From contig JABLXZ010000002.1 in assembly GCA_013177935.1 (NCBI GenBank), positions 384,181 to 448,180 on the forward strand: a stretch of 64,000 nucleotides of DNA, written 5' to 3'. Position 1 is the first letter of the stretch; every line of letters starts with the position of its first letter. Made by a program: the position numbers and the translations under genes. This document shows, one piece after another, positions 5,947 through 63,036 of this stretch. The notes beneath the pieces were generated by a model. It had not been told where the DNA came from and made no database searches. It saw only the letters and a program-made list of their open reading frames with translations. Source of the stretch: a candidate division WOR-3 bacterium. Its GTDB lineage: Bacteria; Hydrothermota; Tepidihabitantia; Tepidihabitantales; Tepidihabitantaceae.

Positions 5947-6594
5947 CTATTTGATAGTTGCCGAAATTAGTTCGCCGTGATAGATAAATGTGTAACCGGC
6001 AAAAGTTTGTTCAAAATGGTACTGGACATTACCCACTCTGTCGGCATACCATTCGTACATTCGTAAGGTGTCGGCACCGGAGATGGAACGGGTTTCAATC
6101 TTCCAGGCATTGCGGTAAGTGCCAGCGGCTACGGTGATGTCTTCCTTCTTCAACACTTCAGCGGTCATATCTTGATTTACCCGCCACTGTTTTCCCGCGG
6201 CAAGCGGTAGTGCCAAAATGGTATCGGGTTCAGTGTCGTCTTTGCTGTCATAGCTCAAAACAAATTTGTCGGTTTCTCTTACATAACAGGTTTCATCAAT
6301 CGTATAGGTGCTTTCGCGCGGATAACGGATGTGAACGGTGCCAACTTTTATCAGTTCAACAACATCTTCCCCTGAACTCAGTTTGTCGTTCTTTGTTGCC
6401 CGGGTATTGATGGTTAAGGTTTGCACCGTGTCCGGTGTGCCGACGGTGCTGGTTGTCATTAAGGTCCAGGCATACCAGTTCCAGGTGCTGCCAATGGAAA
6501 GCGGGTAATAGTCCGGTTTGCTGCCGAAGATGTCGCAGGAGACGAATAAGGCGAGGGTGCCGAACAGGGTCAGGATAATTAGCGCTTTACGCAT
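5947..6594 (-). CDS. Hypothetical lipoprotein
   Basis: Start refined to MRKALIILTLFGTLALFVSC (lipobox) with GGAGG SD; ORF-track start at 6642 probably too long. Confidence 0.45.
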   Translation of the reverse strand: MRKALIILTLFGTLALFVSCDIFGSKPDYYPLSIGSTWNWYAWTLMTTSTVGTPDTVQTLTINTRATKNDKLSSGEDVVELIKVGTVHIRYPRESTYTIDETCYVRETDKFVLSYDSKDDTEPDTILALPLAAGKQWRVNQDMTAEVLKKEDITVAAGTYRNAWKIETRSISGADTLRMYEWYADRVGNVQYHFEQTFAGYTFIYHGELISATIK

Positions 6595-46890: not shown

Positions 46891-49800
46891 ATGAACAGAA
46901 GCATAGGAATGGGCGTTCTGACGCTGCTCGTTTTGACCGGCGTCGGGTTTGCGCTCACTCCGACCCTACCACCGGCATCCCTTACCGATTTGCCGCCGGA
47001 GGTTGCCTATGCACAGACCGTTCAGTTCTGGGTTACGGGTGACGGTCAGGTAATTCACACCCCGACCCTGAAGGATGTGCAGGAGGCAATTGAGGCGGGA
47101 ATTCTGGCGCCGGGAACGGTTCTTGGTAACGGCGGCGGTGAGCCTCAGCCCTTACCGGTTGACGAGTTTATGTGGCCCATGCATGGACACGATGTCTACC
47201 AGAACGCATGGAACCCATTAATCCCTCAGGATACACTGCGTTCGCTCTGGACTGCGACCTATACAAGCGCGGCTTGGGCACCATGGTTCGGCTATCCAGC
47301 AATCGCTGCCGGGAAAGTGGTTTATGTCGATTGCGGCACGGGCTATCTATACTGCCGTGATATAACCGATGGAACCGTAATTTGGAGCACCCAAGTTCAG
47401 GCATCCTCTTACTATCCTGGTTCACCGGTGATTTTTGAGGGTACCGGCGGTCAGCTCTGGGTCGCAGTTCCGAACTATGGAACAAGCGGCAACACCCCAA
47501 GGGTTAGCTGCTATCGGCTGGATAACGGTCAATCGGTCTGGACAGCAGCAGTACCGCTGGGTTCTGCTGGTGCCAGTAGTACGAACCTCAACTTCAACCG
47601 TCCGGTTTACTATAATGGCTACATCTATCACATAACCCTTGAATTTAGTACTCCCTACGGTGGCGTACTCTATCGGGTGAACGCTCTGACCGGCGACACA
47701 ATGCGGTTAAGCACCCGGGGTTCTTCCTGCGGTGGTGCTCTTACCATCGACCCGAATGGTCAGTATGGTTACTGGCCCTGCTGGAACCCGGCATCGCCTT
47801 CCAACCCGAAGATTATGAAGATCAACCTGGCGACGGGCGCGCTGGTTGACTCCACGCCGGTGATTACCGACTATCCAAGAGGTTCGGTAGCAATTAACCC
47901 GACAACGAGAAGGCTGTTCTGTGGTGGTTCCGCTTCCACTTCCGGTTCTGGTTCCATTCGCTGCTATAATGCCGATAATCTTGCTGCCGGTCCGATATGG
48001 ACCTTCACAACCAGTGGCGGGCACGACATCCAGTACCCGGCGATTGACTATGAAAATGTATATTACACCACACAGTCTACACCCGGCCGTCTGTATGCGG
48101 TAAAGCAGTCGGATGGTACCGGTGCCTGGAACACGCAGGGATACATTACGGTTCCTGACAACAGCGCAATATACGATGGTGTACCTTGTGTCACCGGCGC
48201 GGTCGGTTCAACCCGTTATGTTTACCTGACACCAGGGTACTACACTGGTGCCAACATCTGGGTGGTCAATGCGGCTAATGGTAACACGGTGCAGTATCGG
48301 CAGGTATCATCCAGTGAGTATATGTTCACTGGTGCGTCTCGGCCCGCTGGGTACTTTGTTTCCAAATCGGGTTACGGAACGATATTCTGTTTCCGTTCAC
48401 CGAACGACCTGACAATCCGCAATCATGACATCGCAGCCTATCGCATTGACATTCCAGAGGGTGTCAAACTTACACCCGGACAGACAATCACACCTACAGT
48501 AACCTACATCAACTACGGCACCAACAATGAGGCGAACTTCCTGGTGGCTTTCCGGGTGGACTCGGCAGACCAGAACCTTTATCTTGAAGGTGTACTGATT
48601 ACCGACTCGGTCCTTTCCGGTGACACATTCAGCGTAACTTTCCCGGATTGGACACCGGCGAATCAGTACTGGGCTGGATACCAGATTAAGGCGTGGGTGG
48701 AACTGACAGGCGATGAGGCACCAGGCAACGACACGGTGCGGCGCGCCTGTATGACTACGACCGACACCTGCTACTCCTACCGCAGCAACAATGCGCCCTC
48801 AATTGACGGCTATCTTGCCGCGGGCGAATGGGACGACGCCTACTATGTGAATGTTTCCAATATTGCCGGATGGGGTGGAATGACACAGAGTAGTAATGCC
48901 GCCTGGATGCGGTTGAAGCACGACGGCAATAACCTCTACCTCGCATTCGGTATGCCGCAGGCGATGACCCGTGATGCCGGAGACCAGATTGGTTTCTATC
49001 TGGATGAGAGTGGTGATGGTGAATGGGCAACCGACAACTCGGAAGGCAACTACTGGTTCTGGGTGAACCAGTACAACAATGACGAGGTGCTATACCGCTG
49101 GCATACCCCGGACACCTTCGGTCAGCAGTTAACCGTGCCGGGTGCTCAGTCTGCATCTGGTACTCTCAATGGCTATCTGGTGTTTGAGGTGAAGGTGCCG
49201 TTTGGTACACTGCCTTACCAGATTTCGATGAATCCGGTGAATGACACCGGCAAGTTGTGGCTGTTTAGCCTTGACGGCTCTTCGTTCTACGGCTGGTGGC
49301 CCGCTGATATGCCTGATACCCTCTGGCGACAGCCGATGTATTACGGTACATTCATCCTGCGCACCCTGCAGACCGGTGATGTGGGTGTGAAGTCGATTGA
49401 TGCCCCGCGCAGCGCTCGTCCGGGCGATGCGGTTGTGCCCAAGGCGACCTGGAAGAACTTTGGCACAACATCAATGAACTTCACCGCCTACTACCTGATG
49501 AACGACCCGAGCGGGACAAGGGTTTACTCCGAGTCTCAGACCGCAACCCTGGCGGGTGGCGCTGAGATTCAGTTGACCTTCCCGTCCTATGTGGTCAACA
49601 CTGAGGGTGATTGGGCGGTTAAGTGCTCAACCGTTGCCGGCGGTGATGTCAATGCCGCAAACGACATCAGGACCGGCACATTCCGGGTGAGCACCGCACC
49701 ACCGGTAACTCCGGGCTGGGTTGAGGTGAAGTCGATTCCGGGTGCGCCGAAAGACGGTGCGTTCCTTGCATTCAATCCGGACAACGGGTTGATTTATGCG

Positions 49801-50931
49801 GCACGCGGCTACAAGTCCGGCGACTTCTACGCCTATGACCCGAACGCGGACAGTGCGGGTAACTGGACAACTCTGACTCCGATTCCGGCGACCGAGGGTA
49901 AACTGCCTTACAAGGGTGCGAACGGCTGCTATGGTGACGGCTATATCTACGCCACCATCGGCAACAACACCCAGGGCTTCCTGCGTTACTCGATTGAGGG
50001 TAACTCCTGGGAGCCGCTGGCAGCGGTACCGCTGGGTGCGAGTGGCAAGAAGGTCAAAGGTGGTACCGACCTCGTGTATGTGGACGGCTATGTGTACCTG
50101 TTGAAGGGTTACAAGACCGACTTCTTCCGGTACAATGTTGCCGCCTCTGCCTGGGAGTCGCTGCCTTCAGCACCGGCTGGTACTCGTCCGAAATGGGACA
50201 AGGGCTCCTGGCTGGTCTGGGATGGTCAGAACACGCTCTATGCTCACAAGGCGAAGTACGGTGAGATGTGGACATTTGACCTGACAACCCAGCAGTGGGG
50301 CACCGCGTCACTTCCGGGTATGCCGACCTCAAGCAGCAAGACCGGCAAGAACAAGAAGTCCAAGGACGGTTCTGATGGCGCCTACTACAACGGCTACATC
50401 TATGCGCTCAAGGGTGGCAACACCGTTGAGTGGTGGCGTTATGAGGTTGCCGGTAATGCCTGGACCGAACTTGACCCGATGCCGGAGGTTGGTTCTACCG
50501 GCAAGAAGAAACGGGTCAAGGCGGGTGGCGCACTTGCTGGCTACGGTGACAACCCAATCTTCTTTGCCCTGAAGGGTGGCAAAATCCAGGAGTTCTGGCG
50601 CTACTACGACACCACAGTGGTGGTGTATGCTGCGAAGCCGGAGCGCTCGGGCGTGATGGCGGAGCAGGTGAATGCGAACCGGTTTGGGTTCAGCGTGGCG
50701 CCGAATCCGGTGGTCAAGGGTTATGGCTTGCTCTCCTACAGCGTGCCGCAGCAGGCACCGGCGCGGTTGACGGTGTATGATGTGACCGGTCGAGATGTGA
50801 TGCATCTCACCTTTGTCGCTTCGGGCACCGGCACGCGCAACCTTGACCTGCGGTCGCTGGCAGCGGGTGTGTATCTGGTGAAGTTTGAGAGCGCCGGATA
50901 CAACGCGAGCCAGAAGCTCATCGTCCGGTAG
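46891..50931 (+). CDS. Giant secreted multi-domain protein (PQQ-like propeller, CARDB-like, Kelch-like propeller) with T9SS C-terminal domain; paralog of 16236..18899
   Basis: Signal peptide; N-terminal PQQ/BamB-like repeats; C-terminal 300 aa ~60 percent identical to 16236 ORF incl. KWDKGSWLV and PMPEVGSTGKKKRVK blocks; T9SS tail; AAAGGAGG SD. Confidence 0.6.
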   Translation: MNRSIGMGVLTLLVLTGVGFALTPTLPPASLTDLPPEVAYAQTVQFWVTGDGQVIHTPTLKDVQEAIEAGILAPGTVLGNGGGEPQPLPVDEFMWPMHGHDVYQNAWNPLIPQDTLRSLWTATYTSAAWAPWFGYPAIAAGKVVYVDCGTGYLYCRDITDGTVIWSTQVQASSYYPGSPVIFEGTGGQLWVAVPNYGTSGNTPRVSCYRLDNGQSVWTAAVPLGSAGASSTNLNFNRPVYYNGYIYHITLEFSTPYGGVLYRVNALTGDTMRLSTRGSSCGGALTIDPNGQYGYWPCWNPASPSNPKIMKINLATGALVDSTPVITDYPRGSVAINPTTRRLFCGGSASTSGSGSIRCYNADNLAAGPIWTFTTSGGHDIQYPAIDYENVYYTTQSTPGRLYAVKQSDGTGAWNTQGYITVPDNSAIYDGVPCVTGAVGSTRYVYLTPGYYTGANIWVVNAANGNTVQYRQVSSSEYMFTGASRPAGYFVSKSGYGTIFCFRSPNDLTIRNHDIAAYRIDIPEGVKLTPGQTITPTVTYINYGTNNEANFLVAFRVDSADQNLYLEGVLITDSVLSGDTFSVTFPDWTPANQYWAGYQIKAWVELTGDEAPGNDTVRRACMTTTDTCYSYRSNNAPSIDGYLAAGEWDDAYYVNVSNIAGWGGMTQSSNAAWMRLKHDGNNLYLAFGMPQAMTRDAGDQIGFYLDESGDGEWATDNSEGNYWFWVNQYNNDEVLYRWHTPDTFGQQLTVPGAQSASGTLNGYLVFEVKVPFGTLPYQISMNPVNDTGKLWLFSLDGSSFYGWWPADMPDTLWRQPMYYGTFILRTLQTGDVGVKSIDAPRSARPGDAVVPKATWKNFGTTSMNFTAYYLMNDPSGTRVYSESQTATLAGGAEIQLTFPSYVVNTEGDWAVKCSTVAGGDVNAANDIRTGTFRVSTAPPVTPGWVEVKSIPGAPKDGAFLAFNPDNGLIYAARGYKSGDFYAYDPNADSAGNWTTLTPIPATEGKLPYKGANGCYGDGYIYATIGNNTQGFLRYSIEGNSWEPLAAVPLGASGKKVKGGTDLVYVDGYVYLLKGYKTDFFRYNVAASAWESLPSAPAGTRPKWDKGSWLVWDGQNTLYAHKAKYGEMWTFDLTTQQWGTASLPGMPTSSSKTGKNKKSKDGSDGAYYNGYIYALKGGNTVEWWRYEVAGNAWTELDPMPEVGSTGKKKRVKAGGALAGYGDNPIFFALKGGKIQEFWRYYDTTVVVYAAKPERSGVMAEQVNANRFGFSVAPNPVVKGYGLLSYSVPQQAPARLTVYDVTGRDVMHLTFVASGTGTRNLDLRSLAAGVYLVKFESAGYNASQKLIVR

Positions 50932-50995: not shown

Positions 50996-51541
50996 TTAAT
51001 GGATGACGAGAAAGCGGCGCACGATGTTGGGCTGTTCAGTGGAACGGAAGAAATAAATCCCGGGTGTCAGAGGCCGGGAGCGCACCACCATTCCCGAAGC
51101 GTTCAGGATTTCAATCCGGGAGTCGGCAAGCAGGTTGTTGAGCAGAGCCGGAAAGGCAATCATACCCGGTGTCTCCTCAATGCCGGTCTGACCCTGAAAC
51201 TTGATTTTCACCAGGTCAAACGGCGGTGGGAACGAGTACCAGGAGTCGTTAACCGGACGGTAGATGCTATCAGAAACGGGCATCCCGGCAACCATTGCAG
51301 AGTATTTTATTATTGCGGGCCAGCCCGGAAACTCCGGGAACTGGAATGGATTGGTTTCGCCCGGATTAGCTTCCCAGCCCGGGGTTGGGAACCAGGTTCC
51401 GGTGGAGCCATAGAAAAAGTAGACCGAATCGACTACAACCGGTTCTGTTTCGGTTGTCAGGTAGCCGGTAATCTGCCACTGGGCGGTGCTCAGCGTCACC
51501 AATCCCAGAGCGATGAGGGTGATAAAGAACTTCTGTTTCAA
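50996..51541 (-). CDS. Small secreted protein with T9SS-like C-terminal domain
   Basis: Signal peptide MKQKFFITLIALGLVTLSTA, AAGGAGG SD, beta-rich C-terminal tail. Confidence 0.45.
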   Translation of the reverse strand: MKQKFFITLIALGLVTLSTAQWQITGYLTTETEPVVVDSVYFFYGSTGTWFPTPGWEANPGETNPFQFPEFPGWPAIIKYSAMVAGMPVSDSIYRPVNDSWYSFPPPFDLVKIKFQGQTGIEETPGMIAFPALLNNLLADSRIEILNASGMVVRSRPLTPGIYFFRSTEQPNIVRRFLVIH

Positions 51542-51718
51542 AATTACCTCCTTTTTAATGCAATAAGTTTAGTAACACCGTTTTTTAATGTCAAGGAAAA
51601 AAGTCGGGCAGGGTTGCGTTCTTAAATCAAAGGAAGAGGTTTGCGAAGTAAAATTTGCTGGGCAGATATTATAAAGGAAGGTTTAAACCGTGATACGCGG
51701 TTTTGTTTTTCCAACCTG

Positions 51719-51734
51719 TATACTTTAAAGTATA
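51719..51734. promoter_or_regulatory. 16-bp palindrome TATACTTTAAAGTATA (second copy of motif at 12526)
   Basis: Perfect palindrome; shares 17-mer GTATACTTTAAAGTATA with 12527-12543. Confidence 0.45.
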
Positions 51735-52284
51735 ATAGCCGTAAATGGCTGTTTTCATATAACATATTGTAATTTAGATAGTTAACATAATGGGATACAA
51801 TTTTCCCTACCCAACCCCGGGGTAGTCTCCGGAATGGTATGGGAAATTGAAGTTGAGGTGGTTTTGGGGTGAGAACCTGATTCACCTGACCGGCTAATAA
51901 TCGGCACCATTAACGGGTTTGAGTGCAGGGTAAAATTGGGTTGGGTGGTGATAAGATAGAAGACCGGAAAACCGGGCGGGGTGGGTTGAGCCGAATTTCA
52001 GGCTTGACCGGGTATAATTTGCCAGTTAAAATTGGGATGATGAACTCAGTTAGAGCCGTGGTTTGCAGGAGGTGGCGTAGATGAACCGCCCATTTTACCG
52101 GAGCGGTCTGCTCCACCTTCAAGGACAGAATAGCGCGGCTCGTTTAGTTTCCCCAAAACAGTCAGGGACCGGCAGTCGGGAAAGATGAAGCTCCGGTTTT
52201 GTGCCGGCGGTCTGCCGGTTCGTAAAAGTAAGCACCAACTAAAAGCCCAACAAAAAAACAACCAGACAAAACAAAGGAGGTAAA

Positions 52285-53076
52285 ATGGCAAAGCGTTACG
52301 ACTATACCGGTAAGGATGTCCAGGAGGTTTATGACGGTCCGGGCGGTCTGCTCTGGGAAGCGGTGATGGGCGAGCAGATTCACTCAGGCGGACCAGAGGC
52401 AACCGACCGTCTGGCAAAGGCGCTGGGACTGAAACCCGGGATGCAGGTGCTTGATGTGTGCAGTGCGCTGGGCGCGCCGGCAAGGCACATCGCCCAGAAG
52501 TACGGGGTTAAGGTTACCGGTCTTGACTTTACCAGGACGATGCTGGAGAAGGCAAGACAGCGGACCAAAGAGGCAGGGCTTGACCATCTGATTACCTTTG
52601 TTGAAGGCACTGCGCTTGATATGCCGTTCAAGGCGAACACCTTTGATGTGGTCTGGGGTCAGGAGGCGTGGTGCTATGTTACGGACAAGGACCTCCTGGC
52701 GCGGGAGTGTTATCGGGTGTTGAAACCGGGCGGCAAGATTGGTTTTACCGACTGGGTGATTACCGGCAAAATTGAGGAGGACCTGCTCGCAAAACTTTAC
52801 GAGTCGATGGCGTTTCCCTATATGGAGACATTTGAAGGGTGGCAGGAGGTTTTGAAGCGCGCCGGGTTTAAGGTGCTTGATGCCCAGGACCAGACTGAGG
52901 AGTTTGCCCGCTGCTTTGATGAGTACAAGGTGATGGTGGAAGAGAAACTGAAACCGGCGATTCTGCAAAACTTTGGCAAGGACTTGTTTGATTTTGCGGT
53001 CAACCTGGTGAATATGTGGCGCGATGCGGCGCATCGGCATCAGGTAGGCAGAGGGTTTTACATCGGGCAGAAGTGA
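52285..53076 (+). CDS. Class I SAM-dependent methyltransferase
   Basis: Motif I VLDVCSALGAP and downstream acidic-loop motifs; AAAGGAGG SD. Confidence 0.6.
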   Translation: MAKRYDYTGKDVQEVYDGPGGLLWEAVMGEQIHSGGPEATDRLAKALGLKPGMQVLDVCSALGAPARHIAQKYGVKVTGLDFTRTMLEKARQRTKEAGLDHLITFVEGTALDMPFKANTFDVVWGQEAWCYVTDKDLLARECYRVLKPGGKIGFTDWVITGKIEEDLLAKLYESMAFPYMETFEGWQEVLKRAGFKVLDAQDQTEEFARCFDEYKVMVEEKLKPAILQNFGKDLFDFAVNLVNMWRDAAHRHQVGRGFYIGQK

Positions 53077-53226
53077 CCAGGCGTATTCTATTCTGGGTGC
53101 TAATCGGGCTCGGTACCGGCGCGCTGGTTTTTGGCTCTTTCATTGGTGCCTGGGCACGGATTGGCTACTTCAGCAGTCAGATATGCCTCTCCTGTATGGG
53201 TTTGGTTTAATAAAAAGGAGGTGTTT

Positions 53227-55026
53227 ATGAGGGGTAAGTTGCTGATAGTTGCCGGGCTGTTTTTGCTATCCGGCACAGTAATGGCAACGCAGCGGGTGAT
53301 GGTGATGGAGGACTTCACCGCCACCTGGTGTACCTATTGTCCGGGCGCGGCACGCGGTGCTGAGGAGTTGAAGTTTCGGGCGTTTGATTCGGTGGTGGTG
53401 ATTGCCTATCACTCGTCAACCAGCGACCCGTTTTACACCCCAGAGGCGGCGAGCCGGATGAGTTATTATGGCGTGACCGGCTATCCGACGATGCGGCTTG
53501 ATGGCGGACAGGCGGTGGTTGGAGGTCTGCATTACGGCACGATGTATCCGGCATACCGGCAGTTCTTTGACACCCGAAAACTGGAGCCGAGTCCGCTCGA
53601 TATCAGATTGACGGTCACCTATGATTCTTCATCAAGGAGCGGGGTGTTGACAATCGTGGTTCGGAATACCAGTTCCAGCGCGGTCAGCGGTCAGTTGCAC
53701 ACCGTTCTTACCGAAAGTCACATCTACTACCCCTGGCAGGGGATGGATAGCCTGCACGATGTCCAGAGGTTGATGCTTCCTAACGCTGCGGGCGAGGCGA
53801 TAACGGTCAACCCCGGGGATTCGGTGGTGCGAACAAGGAATTTCACCATCAATTCGGGCTGGGTGGCAAGGAACTGCGAATTTGTCGTTTTCGTCCAGAA
53901 CAACACCACGAAGTGGATGTATCAGGGTGCGAGTATCGAAGTGATACCGGAGCCGGAACTGGAGTTTGTCGGTTATCAGCCGGTACTGCCCCGCCCTGGG
54001 CAAAACTTCAATCTGACGCTCGGGTTGCGTAACATCGGCAGTGGGGCGCTGAGCGGTGCCAGTGCGGTGCTGTCAACCGATGACCCGTATCTTACCGTTC
54101 TCCAGGGCACGAGCAGTTTCGGGCAAATCAACCGGGGTGCGGAAGGTTATTGTAACACGCCGTTTCAACTGCAGGTGAGTTCTTCGTGCCCGGACCCGCA
54201 TCAGGCGACACTAAAACTGGTAATTACAACAACCGATATGGTGGTTGATACGGTGACATTTCCTTTGAACATCACCACGAGCCCGGGTTTTGCCGATGAT
54301 ATGGAGCACGGCATCGGTGGCTGGACCCATAGCGGCACCCGGGACAACTGGCACCTTTCGAATTACCGCGCCTCTTCACCCAGTTACTCCTGGTACTGTG
54401 GGGTAGAGTCAAACCACCAGTACACAAACGAGAACGATGCCCGACTTGTGACGCCGTTTTTCACCCTGGGCGACTCTGCCTGGGTGCGGTTCCAGCATTA
54501 CTACGACACGGAGGCGGACTTTGATTTCTGTGTGCTGGAGATAAACAACGGTTCACCGTTCTGGGTGCCGGTCGGGATGTGGAGCGGGTCAAGTAACGGC
54601 TGGCAAGAGGAGGCGTTCGATTTAAGCCCGTTGCGCAATCAGACGGTGCGGTTGCGGTTCCGGTTTATCAGCGACTACAATGTTACGGGCGAGGGCTGGT
54701 ATGTTGACGACTTTGAGTGTGGTACAAGGGTCGGCGTTGCCGAACAAGAAGGGCAAAAGGTGCTGCCCGTGCTGGCGGTGAGCAGTCCGGTACGAACGCG
54801 GGCTAAGGTGCGGTTTGTTTTGCCCGCCGGGGTCAAGGCGGAGGCGCGGGTTTACGACATCAGCGGGAAACTGGTGCGACAACTGAGTGACAACCTTAGT
54901 GGCAGCGGAACCGTGGTCTGGAATCTGACCGATGTCACAGGCAGGATGGTGAGTGCTGGTGGCTACTTTATCCGGATGAGTTATGACAACACCACGGTCT
55001 GTGTACCGATGGTGGTGGTGCGATAA
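53227..55026 (+). CDS. Secreted thioredoxin-fold (WCxYC) multidomain protein with T9SS C-terminal domain
   Basis: Start refined to MRGKLLIVAGLFLLSGTVMA (AAAGGAGG SD); TATWCTYCPG redox motif; T9SS tail. Confidence 0.5.
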   Translation: MRGKLLIVAGLFLLSGTVMATQRVMVMEDFTATWCTYCPGAARGAEELKFRAFDSVVVIAYHSSTSDPFYTPEAASRMSYYGVTGYPTMRLDGGQAVVGGLHYGTMYPAYRQFFDTRKLEPSPLDIRLTVTYDSSSRSGVLTIVVRNTSSSAVSGQLHTVLTESHIYYPWQGMDSLHDVQRLMLPNAAGEAITVNPGDSVVRTRNFTINSGWVARNCEFVVFVQNNTTKWMYQGASIEVIPEPELEFVGYQPVLPRPGQNFNLTLGLRNIGSGALSGASAVLSTDDPYLTVLQGTSSFGQINRGAEGYCNTPFQLQVSSSCPDPHQATLKLVITTTDMVVDTVTFPLNITTSPGFADDMEHGIGGWTHSGTRDNWHLSNYRASSPSYSWYCGVESNHQYTNENDARLVTPFFTLGDSAWVRFQHYYDTEADFDFCVLEINNGSPFWVPVGMWSGSSNGWQEEAFDLSPLRNQTVRLRFRFISDYNVTGEGWYVDDFECGTRVGVAEQEGQKVLPVLAVSSPVRTRAKVRFVLPAGVKAEARVYDISGKLVRQLSDNLSGSGTVVWNLTDVTGRMVSAGGYFIRMSYDNTTVCVPMVVVR

Positions 55027-55029
55027 GGG

Positions 55030-55791
55030 ATGCGGGTGCAAAGGGGCAGGTTGCTGTTTTTCTTCAGCAGCCTGCCCCTGATTTTGGGCTGTTCAGATGC
55101 GCCGTTGATTCCACTCGTGCCCACCAATCGGGTGGTGCTGGTTGAGTTTTTTACCTGGCAGCGGTGCGTTTACTGCCCTTATGCGGCACAGGCACTGGAC
55201 AGTTTGACAAAGGAGTTTTCGGACAGTGTGGCAATAATTGCCTATCACCGGCGCGTTGCGGGCGACACCCTTTCTCCGGAGTATGTTGAGGAGCGGCGTC
55301 AGTTCTATTACGAGTCCGGCGGTGAGCCGGCAACGGTTTTTGATGGCGGTCCGGTGGTGCGCACGCCTGGACCGGAGTACAACTACGAGACATTTAAGAA
55401 TTACATTCTCGGGGCGAAGGCGGTTTTGCCCGGGGTGGAACTGGTGATTACGACGCAGCGCGACTCTTCTCGGGCAACAGTTCTCGCCCGTGTTTTCGGG
55501 GTCGATTCGACACCGGAAGAGAGTTTGCGGCTTTATCTGGTGATAACCGAAGATTCGATACGAACGGTTTTACCCGGTGCAACCGACTCGGTTTTTAACA
55601 ATGTGATGCGGCTGATGCTGCCGGATGTCAATGGTTGGTCGTGCTGGTTGCGCCGGGGCGACAGTTTGCAATTTGACCAGACGGTACCGCTGCCGTCCTA
55701 CTGGAATCACCAGCGGTTGAGTGTTGTGGGTTTTGTGCAACAACCCTCAACCGGGCGGGTTTTACAGGCGTGTAAAAAGAGACTGGATTGA
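55030..55791 (+). CDS. Thioredoxin-fold (CxYC) protein paralogous to N-terminus of 53227 ORF
   Basis: FTWQRCVYCPYAA motif and conserved IAYH block shared with preceding gene. Confidence 0.45.
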   Translation: MRVQRGRLLFFFSSLPLILGCSDAPLIPLVPTNRVVLVEFFTWQRCVYCPYAAQALDSLTKEFSDSVAIIAYHRRVAGDTLSPEYVEERRQFYYESGGEPATVFDGGPVVRTPGPEYNYETFKNYILGAKAVLPGVELVITTQRDSSRATVLARVFGVDSTPEESLRLYLVITEDSIRTVLPGATDSVFNNVMRLMLPDVNGWSCWLRRGDSLQFDQTVPLPSYWNHQRLSVVGFVQQPSTGRVLQACKKRLD

Positions 55792-55800
55792 TAAAAGGAG

Positions 55801-56385
55801 GTGAAGATGAGAAGGATGTTTTTTTGTCTCTTAATTTTTGCCGGATTGGTGACACCGGCTAAAGCCGATTACAGTTTTAGTTTTGTGTGCCGGAGCGAGA
55901 CTTTGCAGCAGGTGGTGCCGGAAGGAGTTGCCGTTTACTACTTCACCCTGACCAACACCGGAACCGAGCCGGACATTTACCTTTTTGACTGCCGGGTTTT
56001 ACAGGAGGTGCCGGGCTGGAGCGCCATCTACTGTTTGCGCGGGCGGTGTGTTGAACCCGGGATACCGATGTTTGACACGCTGGCGCCGGGTGAAGCGGAC
56101 ACGACAATTGACATCACGGTGTTCACGACCAGTACCGAGGGTGAGCAGGTGATTCAAATGACGGTTACCTCTCAAGGCGACCCGTCACAGGTCAGTTCAA
56201 TTAGAACTTATACCCGGGTAAGTTGCGGTATTGAGGAAGGGGTAACTCGTTTTGGGTATAAGGCGGTGCCGGGTCTGGTTTTTGATTATGCGGGAAGAAG
56301 GGTGCGGGCGGTATTGACGCCCGGTATCTATTTTGTCCGTCGGGATGACGGTGGTGGTTTTCAGAAGGTTGTAGTTTTGCGTTAG
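55801..56385 (+). CDS. Hypothetical secreted protein with T9SS-like C-terminal tail
   Basis: Signal peptide MKMRRMFFCLLIFAGLVTPAKA, AAAGGAGG SD. Confidence 0.45.
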   Translation: MKMRRMFFCLLIFAGLVTPAKADYSFSFVCRSETLQQVVPEGVAVYYFTLTNTGTEPDIYLFDCRVLQEVPGWSAIYCLRGRCVEPGIPMFDTLAPGEADTTIDITVFTTSTEGEQVIQMTVTSQGDPSQVSSIRTYTRVSCGIEEGVTRFGYKAVPGLVFDYAGRRVRAVLTPGIYFVRRDDGGGFQKVVVLR

Positions 56386-56394
56386 GATATTAAT

Positions 56395-57435
56395 TTGAGA
56401 AAAAGGGGGCTTTTGAGTTTTGCCCGCGCTGCGGGCTGTGCGGGCAAGGCGTGTCAGGCTGACCTGTTTGCCATTTTAGACGGGTTACCCGGTTTTAAAC
56501 ATCCCGATTTGCTGGTGAGCGGCGCAACCGCAGACGATGCCGGGGTGTTTCGGCTGGATAAAAGACGGGCGCTGGTTCTGACTGTGGATGTTTTACCCCC
56601 GGTTGCAGATGAGCCTTATGTGTTCGGGCAGATTGCAGCGGCAAACTCCCTTTCTGATGTGTATGCGATGGGCGGTATGCCGCTTGCCGCACTGGCAGTT
56701 CTCGGGGTACCGGTTAAAGAGATTGAGTTTGAGACCGTGCGGAGGGTGCTTGCCGGTGCCTGGGACAAGGTTAAGGAGGCGGGTGCGGTTGTTGCGGGCG
56801 GTCACACGGTAAGAGACCAGGAGTTAAAGTTCGGTCTGGCTGTTACCGGGATTGTTCATCCGGCAAAGGTTGTGACCAATGCCGGTGCCAGACCTGGGGA
56901 CCGGTTGTTTTTGACCAAACCGCTCGGAACCGGGGTTATTACAACCGCCCAGAAGAACCGCCGGGCGCCACCGTATCTCGTGGCGCGGGCAAACCGATTG
57001 ATGGCGCAGTTGAACCGGCTGGCAGCAGAGGCGATGACCACAGTCGGGGTAAGCGCGGCAACCGACATTACCGGTTTCGGGTTGCTGGGTCATTGCTGGG
57101 AGATGGCACAGGCGAGCGGGGTTGACATAGTTATCAACGCAACAGCGGTGCCGTTTATTCCCGGAGTGAAGAAACTGGCTCAGGAGGGATGGTTTTGCGA
57201 AGGGACCTTGAACAATTATAAGTTTATGAAAAGCCGTGCCGATTTTGCCCCGGGGATAGACAAAACGATGCGTCTTTTACTGTGCGACGCCCAGACTTCA
57301 GGCGGTTTGTTGATTGCCGTGCCAGAAAAGAAGGTAAGGCGACTTATCAACGAGTTGGTGAGAGCCGGAGTTGATGGTGTCCGGGCGGTGGGTGAGGTGC
57401 GAGCCGGAACCGGAAGGGTACGGGTGGTCGAATGA
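56395..57435 (+). CDS. selD: Selenide, water dikinase (selenophosphate synthetase), Cys-type
   Basis: N-terminus LLSFARAAGCAGKACQADL aligns with E. coli SelD SHGAGCGCKISPKVL; PurM-like DDAGV motif; apparent TTG start. Confidence 0.65.
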   Translation: MRKRGLLSFARAAGCAGKACQADLFAILDGLPGFKHPDLLVSGATADDAGVFRLDKRRALVLTVDVLPPVADEPYVFGQIAAANSLSDVYAMGGMPLAALAVLGVPVKEIEFETVRRVLAGAWDKVKEAGAVVAGGHTVRDQELKFGLAVTGIVHPAKVVTNAGARPGDRLFLTKPLGTGVITTAQKNRRAPPYLVARANRLMAQLNRLAAEAMTTVGVSAATDITGFGLLGHCWEMAQASGVDIVINATAVPFIPGVKKLAQEGWFCEGTLNNYKFMKSRADFAPGIDKTMRLLLCDAQTSGGLLIAVPEKKVRRLINELVRAGVDGVRAVGEVRAGTGRVRVVE

Positions 57436-57480
57436 TAAGTTTGTTGCCGAAAGTTTTTGATTTCCTATAATATCTGACTT

Positions 57481-58119
57481 ATGGCAGAGAGAGCGGATTT
57501 ATTCTCCTTGCTCGTCGATGCGGTTGTTGCCCTGAAACCGGAACAGGTGCAGCGGTTGTGCGCAGAGGCTTTGCGTCAGGGTGTGCAACCGGAGGAGGTG
57601 CTGGAGAAGGGGCTGGCACGGGGTATGCGGGTGGTGGGTGAGAAGTTTGCGGCAAAAGAGTATTTTGTGCCCGAGGTGCTTTTGGCATCAAAGGCGATGT
57701 ATGCCGGGTTTGACATCATAAAAGAGAAAATGGCACCAAAAACCAAAAACCCGGGCCGGGTGGCGCTGGGTGTGGTGCAGGGCGACATCCACGATATCGG
57801 CAAGAATATTGTCAAGGTGATGGTGCAGGCGGCAGGGTTTGAGGTCGTGGATTTGGGCAGGAATGTGCCGATTGAGCGGTTTGTTGCCGCAGCGGAAGAG
57901 GGGGTGCAGATTATCGGAATGTCATCTTTAATGACGACGACGATGCCCAATATGGCAAAGGTGATTGAGGCGCTGAAAAAGAAGGGGTTACGGGAAAGGG
58001 TCAAGGTGCTGGTTGGCGGCGCACCGGTGACGCGCCTCTTTGCCGAACGGATTGGTGCGGACGGCTATGCGCCGGATGCCCACAGCGCGGTGGTAGAGGT
58101 GGAGCGGCTGTTGAAATAA
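57481..58119 (+). CDS. Corrinoid (B12-binding) protein of methyltransferase system
   Basis: B12-binding DxHxxG motif (GDIHDIGKN), ~210-aa two-domain (helical cap + Rossmann) layout like MtaC/MtbC. Confidence 0.7.
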   Translation: MAERADLFSLLVDAVVALKPEQVQRLCAEALRQGVQPEEVLEKGLARGMRVVGEKFAAKEYFVPEVLLASKAMYAGFDIIKEKMAPKTKNPGRVALGVVQGDIHDIGKNIVKVMVQAAGFEVVDLGRNVPIERFVAAAEEGVQIIGMSSLMTTTMPNMAKVIEALKKKGLRERVKVLVGGAPVTRLFAERIGADGYAPDAHSAVVEVERLLK

Positions 58120-58122
58120 GGC

Positions 58123-59115
58123 GTGGAACGGGCAAGGGAGCGGTTAAATACCGTTTTGCAAGCAGAACGGTCCAGAGTCACGCCGCCGGTGGTGTTTCCG
58201 ATTGTCGTGGCAAATCATGCGGCTCGGGTTGCGGGTGAAAGGTTGCGCCGTGCCCTGACCGATAGTTGGGTTCTTGCTGAGGTACTCTATCATGCGTATC
58301 GGCTCTACAATTACGACCTGATAATGGTGTTCGCTGATGTTCTAATTGAGGCGGAGGCGATGGGGTGTGAGATTGAGATGGTGGAGGATGAACCGCCAAT
58401 TTTAGCACGACCCGCAGGCACCGCGGCACAGGTTGCCGATGTGGAGCGCGGGTGCCGGATGAAGGTAATTCTTGATGCAACCGGTGAACTGGTCAAAAGG
58501 GTGGGCAAAGAGGTGTATGTGTTGACATCGCTCAAGGGTCCATTTTCCCTTGCCAGTTTTCTTGCGGGACCCGAGGAGTTTCTCGAAAGTTTGATTTCGG
58601 CACCGGAAAGGGCAGAGTGGTTTTTACAAAGGGCGAGCGAGAACCAGAAAAATTTTGCCCGGGCGATTGTGCAGCGGGGTGGAGTACCGTTTATCGGCGA
58701 CCCAATGGCTTCCGGTAGTATTATCAGTCCAGGTTTGTTTGCGCGGTTTGCCCTGCCCTATTTAAAGGAACTGGTGGCAGAGATTCATCGGTTGGGCTGT
58801 TGGACCGGGTTGCATATCTGCGGGGACACGACCGGGATTTTGCGGATGATGCGCGACAGCGGTGCTGAAATATTAAGTGTGGATGAGATGGATATCAGTT
58901 TTGTCCGTCAGGAGGTCGGTCCGGACCGGGTAATTATGGGCAATGTTTCAACCGGCTTGCTGGAGAGCGGGACACCAGAAGAGGTGCAGCAGGCGGCTCG
59001 GGACTGTCTGAAAAAGGGGTTGCCCAGGATGATTCTTGCCAGCGCCTGCGATGTGCCAGCCGGGGCACCGGTGGCGAATGTCCAGGCGCTGGTGTCTGCA
59101 GCGCAGGGGTGGTGA
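58123..59115 (+). CDS. URO-D-family methylcobamide methyltransferase (MtaA/MtbA/MtoB-like)
   Basis: URO-D/MtaA-like length and conserved blocks; immediately follows corrinoid protein. Confidence 0.55.
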   Translation: MERARERLNTVLQAERSRVTPPVVFPIVVANHAARVAGERLRRALTDSWVLAEVLYHAYRLYNYDLIMVFADVLIEAEAMGCEIEMVEDEPPILARPAGTAAQVADVERGCRMKVILDATGELVKRVGKEVYVLTSLKGPFSLASFLAGPEEFLESLISAPERAEWFLQRASENQKNFARAIVQRGGVPFIGDPMASGSIISPGLFARFALPYLKELVAEIHRLGCWTGLHICGDTTGILRMMRDSGAEILSVDEMDISFVRQEVGPDRVIMGNVSTGLLESGTPEEVQQAARDCLKKGLPRMILASACDVPAGAPVANVQALVSAAQGW

Positions 59116-60518
59116 TGAGAGTGCGCTGTGTTCCAAACGGAATGAAATCCCTTCAAGAGCTGCTCTGGGCAAAAGGGGTGAATTTATCCGGTGATTGTGG
59201 CGGCAGGGGCAGGTGCGGTAAGTGCCGGGTGCGGCTCGTGCCGGATGGTAAAACGGTGCTTGCCTGTCAGTTTGTTCCCAAACATCCAGTCACGGTTGAG
59301 GTTGAGCAAGGGTTTAACCGGTACAACGCTCGGGTTAAGAGGAGCAGGTCAGCGCCCAGCCCAATGAACAAGGATTTGGTGCTGGTTGCGGACATTGGCA
59401 CAACAACTTTAAGGCTGGCAGTAATTGACCAGGCACAGGGGCGTCGGGTTAAAACCGAGACGCAGTTAAATCCGCAGATAAGATTTGGTACGGATGTTCT
59501 TACCCGGATAGGTGCGGCAAGCAAGGTGCAGCGGGCAGGGGTGAATGAGTCGCTTCAGGAGTTTATGGACCGGAACGGAGTTCCCCGGTCAGGTCTGGTC
59601 ACGGTGGTGGGTAATACGGTGATGATGCACTTTGTTTTTGGCAAGAGTCCGAAAGGTCTGGGGCAATTCCCTTATCGCACAAGGTTGCCCTTGAGGCGGG
59701 TGATTCAAGGTGCCCGAAACGGATTGAAGTTGCGCACCCTGCCGCTGCTCGGTTCGTTCATCGGCAGCGACTGCACCGCCGCAATTTTTGCCGCGGGGAT
59801 ACACAAAACCGAACGGCTGACGCTTTTAGTTGATGCCGGAACTAATGGTGAGGTGGTTTTGGGTAACCGGCACAAAATTGTTGCCTGTTCCACCGCAGCC
59901 GGACCGGCTTTTGAAGGGGCAACTTTGAGTTGTGGTGTGCTTGCGGTACCAGGGGCAATTAAGAGTTGCCGGTTGCGGCGGGGCATATGGGTCGTGAAGA
60001 CGGTGGGAAGTAAAGTTCCAACTGGAATCTGTGGTTCGGGCGTACTGGATGTTATTGCTGAAGCGTTGCGCGTAGGTTTGATTGAGCCCGGGGGTAGACT
60101 GAACCAGGGCGAGCGGCTTCAAATTTATGGTAAGGAACCGGCAGGTGTTTATCTCACGCAGGCGGACATCAGAGAGGTGCAACTGGCAAAGGCGGCGATT
60201 GCCACGGGCATAAAGTTGTTGTGGCAAGAGTGGTCGGGAAGGAAAATCGAGCGGGTGGTGATTACCGGTCGGTTTGGCGGTAAGTTAAACCACCGGGCAG
60301 CAATGGCGATTGGGCTTTTGCCGGTTTTGCCGGAGTCGGTGATTTACCAGAAACCAGACCTGGCACTGGCAGGAGCGATAAAGGCGGTGCTTGAGCCGGA
60401 AGTGCTAAAACAGGCTGAGGAGTTGAGTAATCGGGTGACCGAGATTCGGCTTGCGGAGCATCCCGATTTTGAAAAGATGTTTGTTGAATCACTGGCGTTA
60501 ACAGAATGGCACTCTTAG
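59109..60518 (+). CDS. RACo/RamA-like reductive activator of corrinoid proteins (N-terminal [2Fe-2S] ferredoxin + ASKHA ATPase domain)
   Basis: Plant-type 2Fe-2S motif CGGRGRCGKCRV...C followed by ~400-aa ASKHA-like region. Confidence 0.55.
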   Translation: MVMRVRCVPNGMKSLQELLWAKGVNLSGDCGGRGRCGKCRVRLVPDGKTVLACQFVPKHPVTVEVEQGFNRYNARVKRSRSAPSPMNKDLVLVADIGTTTLRLAVIDQAQGRRVKTETQLNPQIRFGTDVLTRIGAASKVQRAGVNESLQEFMDRNGVPRSGLVTVVGNTVMMHFVFGKSPKGLGQFPYRTRLPLRRVIQGARNGLKLRTLPLLGSFIGSDCTAAIFAAGIHKTERLTLLVDAGTNGEVVLGNRHKIVACSTAAGPAFEGATLSCGVLAVPGAIKSCRLRRGIWVVKTVGSKVPTGICGSGVLDVIAEALRVGLIEPGGRLNQGERLQIYGKEPAGVYLTQADIREVQLAKAAIATGIKLLWQEWSGRKIERVVITGRFGGKLNHRAAMAIGLLPVLPESVIYQKPDLALAGAIKAVLEPEVLKQAEELSNRVTEIRLAEHPDFEKMFVESLALTEWHS

Positions 60519-61627
60519 AAAGAAAACGGCTGGAAGGTTTGCGCGCGGAACGGCTTGAGGAACTGAAGAGTTTGAAGGCGCAGGGGAAAAAGGTGGTGGG
60601 TTACTTCTGCCTTTATGCGCCGGTGGAAATTATCCAGGCGGCGGGCGCGGTTCCGGTGCGGCTGGCGCGTGCCGATTATCAGAGTGAACTGGAAGGCGAG
60701 CGGTTTCTGCGGGCGGATGCCTGTCCGTTTTGTAAGGCGAGTCTGGGGAAGTTTGCCCACGACCCGTTGTATCAACTAATTGACGCTGTGGTCAGTGTCA
60801 ATACCTGTGATATGATGCGCCGGTTGCCGGAGTCGATAACGGCAAACTTTTCGTTGCCGGTGTTTTCGCTTTATCTGCCGCGCACCAGTGAACCGTTTCC
60901 CAATCGGTTGAGTGCGTTTCAAGCCGGATTGGTGGACTTGAAGGAGTGGTTGGGCAGTTTGACCGGTCAGGAGTGGCAAAACGAGCGGCTGAAAGAAGCG
61001 ATTAATGAGATGAACCAGTTGCGGCGCAAACTTCAGGAACTGGACCAGAGCCGGGCGGAAAAACCGCCGAAAATTCGGGGCGGTGAACTGTTTGATATCG
61101 TAGCACTGGCAACACTGCTACCACCCAGAAGGATGCTAAATTTGCTGAATGAGTTGTTATCAATGGTTTGGGCGGCGCCAGGAACGGTGGACAAGAATCG
61201 GGTCCGGCTGCTGTTGACCGGTAGTATCTTATCAGAAGAGGACCGGACACTAATCGAAATTGTTGAAGAAGGAGCGGATATTGTTGCGGATACGGTATGT
61301 ACCGGTAGTAGATGGTTTCACGAGGAGTTAAAGGTTGAAGAGGAGCCGTTTGCCGGGCTTGCCCGCTTTTATTTTAATCGAACACCGTGCGCCTGCCGCA
61401 GGCCCAACAATGCGCTTTTTGATTACATCAGAGAGCAGGTACAGGAGCGAAAGGTTCAGGGGATTGTCAACAAGAGTTTGCTTTACTGCGACGCCTATCG
61501 TTTTGAGGGAAAATGGCTGCGCCAGGAGATTGGCATTCCGGTGCTGGAGGTTGATGGCGACTATTCCCAGGAGAACCTCCAGCAGTTGCGCACCCGGATT
61601 GAGGCGTTTCTTGAGATGTTGCGATGA
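60506..61627 (+). CDS. 2-hydroxyacyl-CoA dehydratase / benzoyl-CoA reductase subunit-like (HgdB/BcrC family) protein
   Basis: Family-typical length and Cys-containing blocks (YFCLYAPVEII, CPFC, NTCDMM); overlapping start with upstream and downstream genes. Confidence 0.4.
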   Translation: MALLERKRLEGLRAERLEELKSLKAQGKKVVGYFCLYAPVEIIQAAGAVPVRLARADYQSELEGERFLRADACPFCKASLGKFAHDPLYQLIDAVVSVNTCDMMRRLPESITANFSLPVFSLYLPRTSEPFPNRLSAFQAGLVDLKEWLGSLTGQEWQNERLKEAINEMNQLRRKLQELDQSRAEKPPKIRGGELFDIVALATLLPPRRMLNLLNELLSMVWAAPGTVDKNRVRLLLTGSILSEEDRTLIEIVEEGADIVADTVCTGSRWFHEELKVEEEPFAGLARFYFNRTPCACRRPNNALFDYIREQVQERKVQGIVNKSLLYCDAYRFEGKWLRQEIGIPVLEVDGDYSQENLQQLRTRIEAFLEMLR

Positions 61628-63036
61628 GGAAACTGGATTATTACGACCCGGAACCGGCGCGGATTACATTTGATGAGTGGGACGATTTGTTTCAGAAAAT
61701 CCCGGACGAGTTGATTGAAAAATTTCACTACTTTGCACCCAATCAGGAGGCATGGTCAAAATACCTTTTCCCCCCGCAGGTCTTTGCCATCTACGGAGCA
61801 AGGCATCTGCGCCGTCTGAAGTTTGACAACTCGCTTGCCGCATTGCGAATGTGGGGTTTTGTCCAGAATGAGATTGAACGGCTGTTTCGTGCCCGACAGA
61901 TTGGGAAAAAGGTTGTGGCGGTGATGGGCGATTTAGGACCACTAGCGGTGATTGTGGATTCGGTGGGGGCAAAGCCGGGTTCGGATAAAGACGATAGGGA
62001 GTGTGTGGCGTTTTATCCGGACTGCTGGTGGTGGACCCCTTTTGCGATGGAGAGTAAGGTGTTACTGGAAAAGGCGGCAGAGTTAGGTATCGGCGATGCC
62101 ACCTGTTTTTCCCGGGCGGCACTGGGCGCCTTTGCCAAGCACAGTTACTTTCCGGACCCGGATTTGGTGATTGCGGCAACCGGTGCATCGTGCGACGACT
62201 ATTCTGGGGTGGAGAGCCTGGTGGCAAAGATGGTGCCCGAGGTTATTTGGGTGGAAACACCACCCCGCTGCGTTGAATCCAAGGCAAGGGAAAGGGTTGA
62301 GTTGATGCTGGTTGAGGAGTATCAACGGGTGATTGAAAAACTTGAGGGGCTGACCGGTGTCAAGGTGACCGAGGAGATGTTGCAACAGGGGGTGCGACGG
62401 GCAAATCATTTGCGTCGTCTTACCCAGCGGTTTAAGGAACTGGCTTACGGTTATGGTGTGTTCCCGGCGCTGGAAACGATGGTTGTGGAGTTTGGCTGTC
62501 TGCACGGCTACTCCGATTTTGCGGAGTGGACCGCGATTGTCGAGCATCTGGTAGAGACCGCCACAGTGCGATTGCAGCAGGGTAAAACGGTGCTGGCGGG
62601 TGACAGTTTGCGGATTGGCTGGGTGACACCACCCGCCGACCCGTTGCTTTTGTGTTATGTTGAAGACCAGGGAGCACGGGTTGTCGCGACCGAATATGTG
62701 ATTAATCAGGCATTGAGTTTGATTGATGAGACGGTACCGCCCCTTTTAGGTATCGCCCGGTCCCTGCTCAACGCTTCTTTGATTGGTTCGTCAAGAGAAA
62801 GGGCGGCGATGTTTGTCCGGGCAGCGCAGCAATGGCAAGCCGAAGGTGTGATTGTTTCCGGAATTTTAGGTGGTTCGCACTGCGCGATGGAGTCGCGATT
62901 GATTGGTGATTATATTAAACAGAAACTGGACATTCCGATTCTGGAGTTTGATGTTGCGCCGCCGAATAAGGCGATTGACCGTCAAACCCAGACCAGGATT
63001 GACGCATTTCTGGAACTGGTGCGGAGCCGGCGATGA
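61624..63036 (+). CDS. 2-hydroxyacyl-CoA dehydratase / BcrB-like family protein (partner of 60506 ORF)
   Basis: Paralogous architecture to preceding gene, translationally coupled (ATGA overlaps). Confidence 0.4.
   Translation: MRKLDYYDPEPARITFDEWDDLFQKIPDELIEKFHYFAPNQEAWSKYLFPPQVFAIYGARHLRRLKFDNSLAALRMWGFVQNEIERLFRARQIGKKVVAVMGDLGPLAVIVDSVGAKPGSDKDDRECVAFYPDCWWWTPFAMESKVLLEKAAELGIGDATCFSRAALGAFAKHSYFPDPDLVIAATGASCDDYSGVESLVAKMVPEVIWVETPPRCVESKARERVELMLVEEYQRVIEKLEGLTGVKVTEEMLQQGVRRANHLRRLTQRFKELAYGYGVFPALETMVVEFGCLHGYSDFAEWTAIVEHLVETATVRLQQGKTVLAGDSLRIGWVTPPADPLLLCYVEDQGARVVATEYVINQALSLIDETVPPLLGIARSLLNASLIGSSRERAAMFVRAAQQWQAEGVIVSGILGGSHCAMESRLIGDYIKQKLDIPILEFDVAPPNKAIDRQTQTRIDAFLELVRSRR

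Follow-up and report, generated by a model that had tools for sequence, protein, structure and literature searches.

A leader made of repeated units precedes the class-I S-adenosylmethionine (SAM) methyltransferase gene (52285-53076, plus strand, Methyltransf_11/25) in a 64,000-nucleotide stretch of DNA from a candidate division WOR-3 bacterium, referred to here at its full length as the window. Each unit combines a Shine-Dalgarno (SD) sequence, a start codon overlapping an in-frame UGA, and a hairpin resembling a bacterial selenocysteine insertion sequence (SECIS), and consecutive units are linked in frame by short upstream open reading frames (uORFs). We consider it probable that this leader acts as a translational relay with selenocysteine (Sec)-decoding checkpoints. 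More tentatively, with a confidence that stops a little short of even, tandem UGA-SECIS checkpoints fused to restart codons could represent a new class of gene control, which would gauge the pool of charged Sec-tRNA and SelB and set the expression of a selenium regulon that would take in SelD, Se carriers, double-cubane reductases and Cys-type paralogues of selenoproteins.

The repeated junction unit

The unit was recognised by comparing the upstream regions of the methyltransferase genes from a dozen relatives; the loci retrieved include about 40 further ones from WOR-3 or Stahlbacteria. The unit consists, in this order, of GGAGG, 6-8 nt, a start codon that overlaps UGA, about 19 nt of free sequence and a GC-rich hairpin of 5-7 bp, whose loop reads GGUC, GGUCU or GGUUC and, rarely, AGUYN. 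Among 48 distinct units the start codon is AUG in 32, GUG in 15 and UUG in one; the overlapping UGA is invariant (48/48) and never replaced by UAA or UAG. The hairpin begins 17-19 nt downstream of the start codon. Counted from the U of UGA, the G of the loop GU comes at 24 nt in 31 of 45 units (range 20-24), and the 48 units have 33 distinct stems. Each of about 25 related leaders has one to three units. The proposal of an earlier note on this DNA, that the methyltransferase gene has a conserved cis-regulatory leader in which the GC hairpins are functional elements, is well supported by this sequence comparison.

Covariance models were made for two sets of units, those of the window clade and those of more distant WOR-3 lineages. 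Searching the 64-kb window with them yields the following two units and no others, the next-best match having an E-value of 0.19:

52065-52119, plus strand: unit 1 (covariance model R1, 54.9 bits, E 7e-11), with SD GGAGG at 52068-72 and ATG at 52081-83 over the stop UGA at 52082-84 (AUGA)
52100-52114, plus strand: SECIS-like hairpin of unit 1, GGAGC (52100-04), loop GGUCU (52105-09), GCUCC (52110-14)
52169-52223, plus strand: unit 2 (R1, 49.2 bits, E 1.7e-9), with a weak SD GGGAAAG at 52178-84 and ATG at 52185-87 over the stop UGA at 52186-88
52203-52219, plus strand: SECIS-like hairpin of unit 2, GCCGGC (52203-08), loop GGUCU (52209-13), GCCGGU (52214-19)

The helices named in the earlier note are all present, namely GGAGC-GGUCU-GCUCC (52100-52114), GCCGGC-GGUCU-GCCGGU (52203-52219) and GGCG...CGCC, as are the competing CCGGCAG/CUGCCGG pairing (52168-75 with 52212-19) and the C/A-rich tract (52233-52272) followed by a strong SD, AGGAGG, at 52275-80. 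Weak unit matches in loci L158, L132 and L088 (at 13567) were inspected and rejected. Hammerhead, k-turn, C/D-box, CsrA-site and mini-ykkC motifs were also considered for the combination of GAUGA with tandem hairpins and discarded: the conserved core is NUGA (N being A, G or U), and the Rfam models have no match.

The hairpin covaries. In the alignment of the window clade (A2, group A), 92% of cells are paired and five of six pairs are changed on both sides; none of 500 shuffles is as good, and registers slid along the alignment reach 27-51%. In the more distant WOR-3 units (A4, group B) 83% are paired. RNAalifold, run on ten first units (alignment A7), returns a simple SECIS-like hairpin of 5-6 bp as the sole consensus helix.

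The likeness to SECIS elements was assessed against known and candidate examples. The E. coli fdhF SECIS (NC_000913.3), UGA CAC GGC CCA UCG GUU GCA GGU CUG CAC C, has an apical GGUC(U) loop identical to that of the units, with its GU 22 nt from UGA. Model R1 does not match this element, since SD and start codon are part of the model and its spacing differs; the loops were compared directly instead. Closer to the window organism, SelD itself is a selenoprotein at three loci (L024:1630-2658, L026:1584-2612 and L029:1617-2645; KCAG-U-ASKL, TVKCAG-U-ASKLSAAQL), where UGA is followed by the hairpin GCC-GCGC-AGUUG-GCGC-A-GGC with GU at 26 nt; Sec decoding hence occurs in other WOR-3 lineages. A candidate unannotated selenoprotein of about 355 aa (L030:5470-6540), with the Cys-Sec dipeptide GWERC-U-GDF and its UGA at 6078, displays an AUCGCUC-AGUCU-GAGCGA hairpin, again with GU 26 nt after UGA. 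The features of a bacterial SECIS that the units share are an in-frame UGA, a covarying downstream hairpin and an apical GU at a near-fixed distance.

The SD sequences of the units are predicted to be more often paired than those of the main genes (mean unpaired probability 0.24 vs 0.43, p=0.01). Two helices stand out in the minimum free energy (MFE) folds:

52068-75 with 52113-20, plus strand: possible SD-sequestering helix of unit 1, GGAGGU(GG) with (CC)ACCUUC
52168-75 with 52212-19, plus strand: predicted competing long-range helix of unit 2, ACCGGCAG with CUGCCGGU

The SD of unit 1 has a predicted unpaired probability of 0.01, its pairing partner CCACCUUC being located just 3' of the hairpin, and the folding model suggests that it may be sequestered by this local helix. 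The ACCGGCAG/CUGCCGGU helix can enclose the start region of unit 2, in competition with the SECIS-like hairpin.

Reading frames of the leader

The earlier note described the leader as non-coding. It is instead tiled by three short overlapping ORFs under frame constraint, which are listed together with the promoter and with the stops of the frames that would be read if UGA were decoded:

52004-09 and 52027-32, plus strand: leader promoter, -35 TTGACC, 17-nt spacer, -10 TAAAAT (10/12 matches to consensus)
52037 or 52040 to 52084, plus strand: uORF0, 14-15 codons, ATG at 52037 or 52040, stop UGA at 52082-84, peptide MMNSVRAVVCRRWRR*
52081-52188, plus strand: uORF1, 35 codons, from the ATG of unit 1 to the UGA of unit 2 (52186-88)
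52185-52283, plus strand: uORF2, 32 codons, covering the C/A-rich tract and the main SD, stop UAA at 52281-83
52145-52147, plus strand: UAG stop of the UGA1 read-through frame, 20 codons after UGA1
52240-52242, plus strand: UAA stop of the UGA2 read-through frame, 17 codons after UGA2

Both promoter hexamers are kept in L001 and L004, the only two of 81 loci with which the intergenic gap aligns end to end in blastn. Transcription is predicted to start at about 52039-40, at the uORF0 start codon, and the mRNA of the window would therefore be leaderless. The TATAAT sequence (52013-18) that the earlier note took as the promoter box lacks a properly spaced -35 and is not conserved in L001/L004; with TTGACC/TAAAAT in its place, the estimate of about 270 nt for the leader becomes about 245 nt. 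The same arrangement is found in relatives. In every leader examined the first UGA is the stop codon of a uORF0 of 13-22 codons starting with ATG or GTG, and in about 19 loci the -10 box of a sigma70-like promoter (TTGACA-17-TAnnnT) ends 4-10 nt before this start codon, so that these mRNAs are likely to be leaderless or nearly so.

Four independent frame constraints suggest that the leader is translated as a relay. First, the spacing between consecutive units is in frame in all 15 pairs tested ((d+1) mod 3 = 0), at 11 different lengths from 86 to 161 nt, and the restart frame is open exactly to the next UGA in 14 of the 15 pairs, when the probability of its staying open in shuffled sequences is 0.07-0.47 per case; in the remaining pair, from L004, another in-frame UGA comes three codons before that of the next unit. 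Three further leaders (L084, L088 and L091) obey the frame rule. Second, the first UGA closes the promoter-adjacent uORF0 described above. Third, in 25/25 leaders the end of the last uORF falls close to the main start codon, no more than 17 nt upstream of it and no more than 29 nt inside the gene, and in the window its UAA is followed by a single A and then by the methyltransferase AUG. Fourth, the read-through frame is closed at a preferred place: its stop comes a median of 19 codons after UGA (interquartile range 16-20), falls within 16-23 codons in 31/47 cases vs 9/47 for the third frame, and is UAA or UAG in 44/47. When ten first units are aligned, an invariant UUA marks the place of this read-through stop amid otherwise unalignable sequence.

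The encoded peptides show no such constraint. Their lengths and sequences vary freely, nothing is conserved beyond the residues imposed by SD and hairpin, and a comparison with Pfam returns no family. No terminator-like sequence was found between 52040 and 52284; of the parts of a classical attenuator, the leader has the ORF with a UGA(Sec)-type codon at its junctions and does not have the terminator/antiterminator pair.

A proposed selenocysteine relay and its rivals

We propose the following sequence of events. Transcription would begin at or near the start codon of the leaderless uORF0 (14-15 codons), and a ribosome translating it would meet UGA1 with a SECIS-type hairpin about 23 nt downstream, at the mRNA entrance, and with the SD-backed AUG overlapping the stop. 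If release factor 2 (RF2) wins, the ribosome would terminate, restart on the overlapping start codon and read uORF1 to UGA2, where the choice would be repeated; after a second restart it would read uORF2 to the stop 1 nt before the methyltransferase AUG and translation would be handed on. If SelB-GTP-Sec-tRNA(Sec) bound to the hairpin wins, Sec would be inserted, the old frame kept and the restart codon passed; the read-through ribosome would then be released about 19 codons on, at a UAA or UAG with no start codon, and the relay would be broken. A further effect of SelB on the hairpin may be to mask the restart site, by analogy with E. coli selAB. Whether a UGA-SECIS is recoded or terminated by RF2 depends on selenium supply (PMC4513850). 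Output would then fall as Sec-decoding capacity rises, the switch being ON when Sec-tRNA is scarce, and this would place selenium-handling genes (SelD, Se carriers) and Cys-type versions of selenoprotein families under negative feedback. The final readout might be translational coupling, Rho polarity or mRNA stability. The opposite sign may also apply, as a feed-forward in which, for example, a detoxifying methyltransferase is induced by selenium.

Several observations weigh against this proposal. The search for tRNA-Sec was negative both for the window and for the retrieved loci, which cover a small part of each genome; SelA and SelB are absent from the 10 large ORFs of the window, and neither selA nor selB was seen in the same partial loci. 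There is no credible selenoprotein gene in the loci of the window clade, where every protein examined is a Cys form (SelD with AGCAGK, the permease and the Omp28-like proteins), and Sec use by the source organism accordingly rests on the leader itself. A Sao-like ABC permease and its ATPase (L088:4026-5730), each apparently split into two ORFs, were considered as a case of Sec codons and rejected, as comparison with L089 shows frameshift errors in the contig; the permease is a Cys form (FRPLCPIAW). Within the leader, the SD of unit 2 is weak (GGGAAAG), the distance from UGA to the loop is 24 nt in the units vs 26 nt in the two WOR-3 examples and 22 nt in E. coli, and the putative SD-sequestering helix has neither consensus nor covariation in the alignment of ten first units. 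The methyltransferase SD is strong and fairly accessible (predicted unpaired probability 0.54), so dependence of the gene on the relay is not evident from the sequence, and the switch may require amplification, for instance by mRNA decay or by Rho polarity acting on the C/A-rich tract. Were recoding as frequent as in E. coli (30-40%), a pair of checkpoints would by itself change output only about 2-3-fold. Co-transcription with SelD is not established, given a weak terminator-like site at 53115-28, after the methyltransferase gene, and a promoter-like site before 57481. Finally, in 80 metagenome SelD loci searched with lineage-specific models, units are confined to WOR-3-like loci; the 70 SelD loci from non-WOR-3 lineages gave nothing credible with such models.

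Four other explanations were weighed. In the first, which we regard as unlikely, the hairpin is a SelB operator and nothing else: SelB-GTP-Sec-tRNA bound to it would sterically block the adjacent start codon, and UGA would never be decoded. The hairpin does lie at the edge of the footprint of an initiating ribosome, E. coli selAB provides a precedent, and the selenium-linked gene contexts fit equally well. Yet an operator leaves unexplained the invariant UGA, its being in frame with the upstream ORF, the frame-locked spacings and the positioned UAA/UAG. The selAB operator, as Thanbichler and Bock are said to have found in 2002, needs no UGA, and the hairpins of the units depart from that type in being within ORFs and always accompanied by one, so that the likeness is confined to function.

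Selenium-independent translational coupling, by ribosome pausing or a thermosensor, with the SECIS-like loop as a coincidence or a relic of lost Sec decoding, is slightly less likely still. AUGA overlaps are common coupling devices, the lack of Sec machinery and selenoproteins in the loci of the window clade would be expected, and the pairing of the unit SDs suggests a generic control of ribosome access. Such coupling does not account for the GGUC(U) loop, the fixed distance to UGA and the exclusive use of UGA, all kept while the stems covary within the window clade, or for the constraint on the read-through stop; nor does it account for the association of units with SelD, Se_S_carrier, YedF-like and double-cubane genes.

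It is improbable that the units are small selenoprotein genes, with the products of uORF(n) and its Sec extension (about 35-45 aa) being functional selenopeptides. An in-frame UGA, a SECIS-like hairpin and a defined downstream stop do give them the look of one, but the peptides are unconserved and outside Pfam, and the overlapping SD and start codon, the open restart frame and the end of the chain at the main start would have no explanation.

The least probable reading is that of the earlier note, a riboswitch or T-box-like leader sensing SAM, S-adenosylhomocysteine (SAH) or B12, or an independent small RNA, prompted by a long leader with GC helices upstream of a SAM methyltransferase gene and near corrinoid genes: the consensus amounts to one short hairpin per unit, the leader lacks an intrinsic terminator, conservation is in codons and frames, and Rfam offers no match. 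Searches with the Rfam 15 families (SAM-I/II/III/IV/V/VI, SAM-SAH, SAH, cobalamin, T-box and others) gave 0 matches at the gathering threshold in the 64-kb window, and the five matches at E<=10 in 51400-52400 are at chance level, none of them to SAM, SAH, cobalamin or T-box families. Folding z-scores are also unremarkable for the two halves of the gap (-1.7 and -1.1). The value of -7.5 obtained for the whole gap (20 shuffles) was rejected as a signal of real structure, since the halves do not support it; it is best explained by a mixed AT-rich/GC-rich composition together with pairing of the two divergent SDs.

The proposed relay is built from known parts, namely SECIS, leader uORF and termination-reinitiation. 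Its closest counterpart is the E. coli selAB leader, for which PMC13449736, after Thanbichler and Bock (2002, EMBO J 21:6925), describes SelB-dependent repression via a SECIS-like element. Both would place a SECIS-type hairpin before selenium-metabolism genes, to be read by SelB and Sec-tRNA for translational negative feedback, which in our case is a proposal by analogy. The hairpin of the E. coli leader is reported to be single and untranslated, with the SD 3 nt downstream of it and without UGA or uORFs; in contrast, the WOR-3 leaders have one to three hairpins inside mini-ORFs, an invariant in-frame UGA over a start codon and a frame-locked relay from a leaderless uORF. With bona fide SECIS elements (E. 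coli fdhF, WOR-3 SelD) the units share an in-frame UGA, a GC hairpin, a GGUC or AGU(C/U) loop and a GU at 22-26 nt, but their host ORFs are tiny and non-conserved, UGA lies over an SD-preceded start and read-through ends about 19 codons on.

Leader-peptide attenuators, including the mycobacterial leaderless polycysteine uORFs (bioRxiv 834739), likewise use a short 5' uORF to report the supply of one aminoacyl-tRNA, whereas the choice here would be between recoding and termination-restart rather than stalling at a sense codon, with serial checkpoints and no terminator/antiterminator. The RF2 frameshift site of prfB resembles the units in its SD-like sequence a few nt before an in-frame UGA and in the competition of RF2 with alternative decoding; prfB uses a +1 frameshift, while Sec insertion is proposed here and termination, not its avoidance, would lead to the productive frame via restart. 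In Treponema primitia, where fdhF(Sec) is transcribed in a selenium-dependent way by means of translational coupling at its Sec codon (PMC3892789), UGA-SECIS decoding also governs downstream expression, but there a catalytic Sec codon lies within an enzyme gene and selenium raises expression, as opposed to dedicated leader sensors with the opposite proposed sign. Full-text searches of the literature turned up nothing on UGA-SECIS checkpoints placed in leader uORFs, and a 2026 review of prokaryotic selenoproteomes leaves SECIS-like, leader and autoregulatory elements unmentioned. The chance that the relay is a new sensor class appears substantial.

Gene context and significance

The genes behind unit leaders are selenium-linked. 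In the window, the methyltransferase gene is followed on the same strand by two genes for Omp28/thioredoxin-fold proteins, related to the Omp28-related selenoprotein family NF045500, and further downstream by a 194-aa ORF, SelD, a corrinoid protein, an MtaA-like methyltransferase, a RamA-like activase and two double-cubane reductases. The SelD gene is located as follows:

56395-57435, plus strand: SelD (TIGR00476, 1.9e-106)

Metagenome loci L084-L091 preserve the synteny between the units and SelD, which lies 4-8 kb downstream. In distant WOR-3 lineages, units precede either a double-cubane reductase (NF040772) with activase and methyltransferase, or an FTR-like protein with methyltransferase. 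At one locus (L010:6836-7906) the GUG of the fourth unit (6997) is itself the start of a Se_S_carrier (PF11823) gene, with the SECIS-like hairpin within its first 15 or so codons and a TusA+DsrE (YedF-like) gene next to it. Comparative genomics has tied DUF3343 (Se_S_carrier), YedF and 2-hydroxyglutaryl-CoA-dehydratase-like/activase genes to selenium loci (PMC5322559), and NF040772 double-cubane proteins occur almost only in genomes with SelD (955/970; bioRxiv 2022.07.06.499078).

The cluster at 52285-63036 consists throughout of Cys forms, from families in which other members are selenoproteins, and its Omp28/thioredoxin-fold (WCxxC) proteins carry MAM and type IX secretion system (T9SS) tails; the cluster is possibly a pathway that processes methylated or organo-selenium compounds. 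The locus is flanked by very large secreted proteins with T9SS sorting domains (Por_Secre_tail, FlgD_ig) at 46891-50931 and 53131-55026, which also contain beta-propeller, Kelch and CARDB repeats. The methyltransferase itself scores below cut-off with DVU_1556-family and ArsM-like models and is 96% identical to a homologue in a WOR-3 metagenome-assembled genome. Its closest homologues outside WOR-3 (L042-L050, 45-48% identity) belong to Asgard archaea (Hodarchaeota, Heimdallarchaeota), a relationship that suggests inter-domain transfer of the gene.

The leader occupies the proximal part of a gap of 743 bp between divergent genes (51542-52284), which is the largest of the window on a map of ORFs of at least 150 aa, in line with the earlier note. 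The remaining, distal 460 bp lie outside the leader and are, among the window, L001 and L004, more conserved than the leader itself (51560-51870). Features of this side are:

50996-51541, minus strand: flanking ORF of 181 aa, no Pfam or NCBIfam match
51594-51566, minus strand: promoter, TTGACA..TAAACT
51685-51703, plus strand: covarying terminator-like hairpin with a U-run after it (to 51710)
51719-51734: perfect 16-nt palindrome TATACTTTAAAGTATA, overlapping a plus-strand promoter-like site at 51708-51736
51798-51849: invariant hairpin CAAUUUUCCCUACC...GGUAUGGGAAAUUG

The terminator-like hairpin has compensatory changes in L004 (AAACCG.G/CGCGGUUU to AAGCCC/GGGCUU), and with no gene on the plus strand upstream of it, a short unannotated transcript may exist here. 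A transcription-factor operator, a second promoter or a small RNA may account for the distal half of the gap, which has no Rfam match and no significant folding z-score. The minus-strand ORFs of the gap, rightly judged spurious in the earlier note, have no Pfam match and are not conserved, being pieces of 87, 42 and 70 aa in the window vs a single 154-aa ORF in L001. A protein-coding gene on that strand, which the note had named as a finding that would overturn a regulatory RNA, is accordingly not found.

Bacterial selenium sensing is largely open, the known cases being the E. coli selAB operator, a proposed LysR-type regulator (PMC5322559) and the in-gene coupling of Treponema (PMC3892789). 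If our proposal is true, the leader would be without precedent both as a dedicated selenocysteine sensor and as a regulator that decides between stop-codon redefinition and termination-and-reinitiation, a new leader-ORF logic operating at the ribosome and multiplied over serial checkpoints. The motif (SD, start codon over UGA, SECIS hairpin, frame-locked repeats) is a simple computable signature, which could help to find selenium-responsive genes in metagenomes and could serve as a compact part for synthetic Sec-responsive switches. For the organisms concerned, it would mark a selenium regulon in an uncultured phylum, and would tie double-cubane reductases, the methyltransferase, thioredoxin-fold outer-membrane proteins and corrinoid methyltransferases to selenium metabolism.

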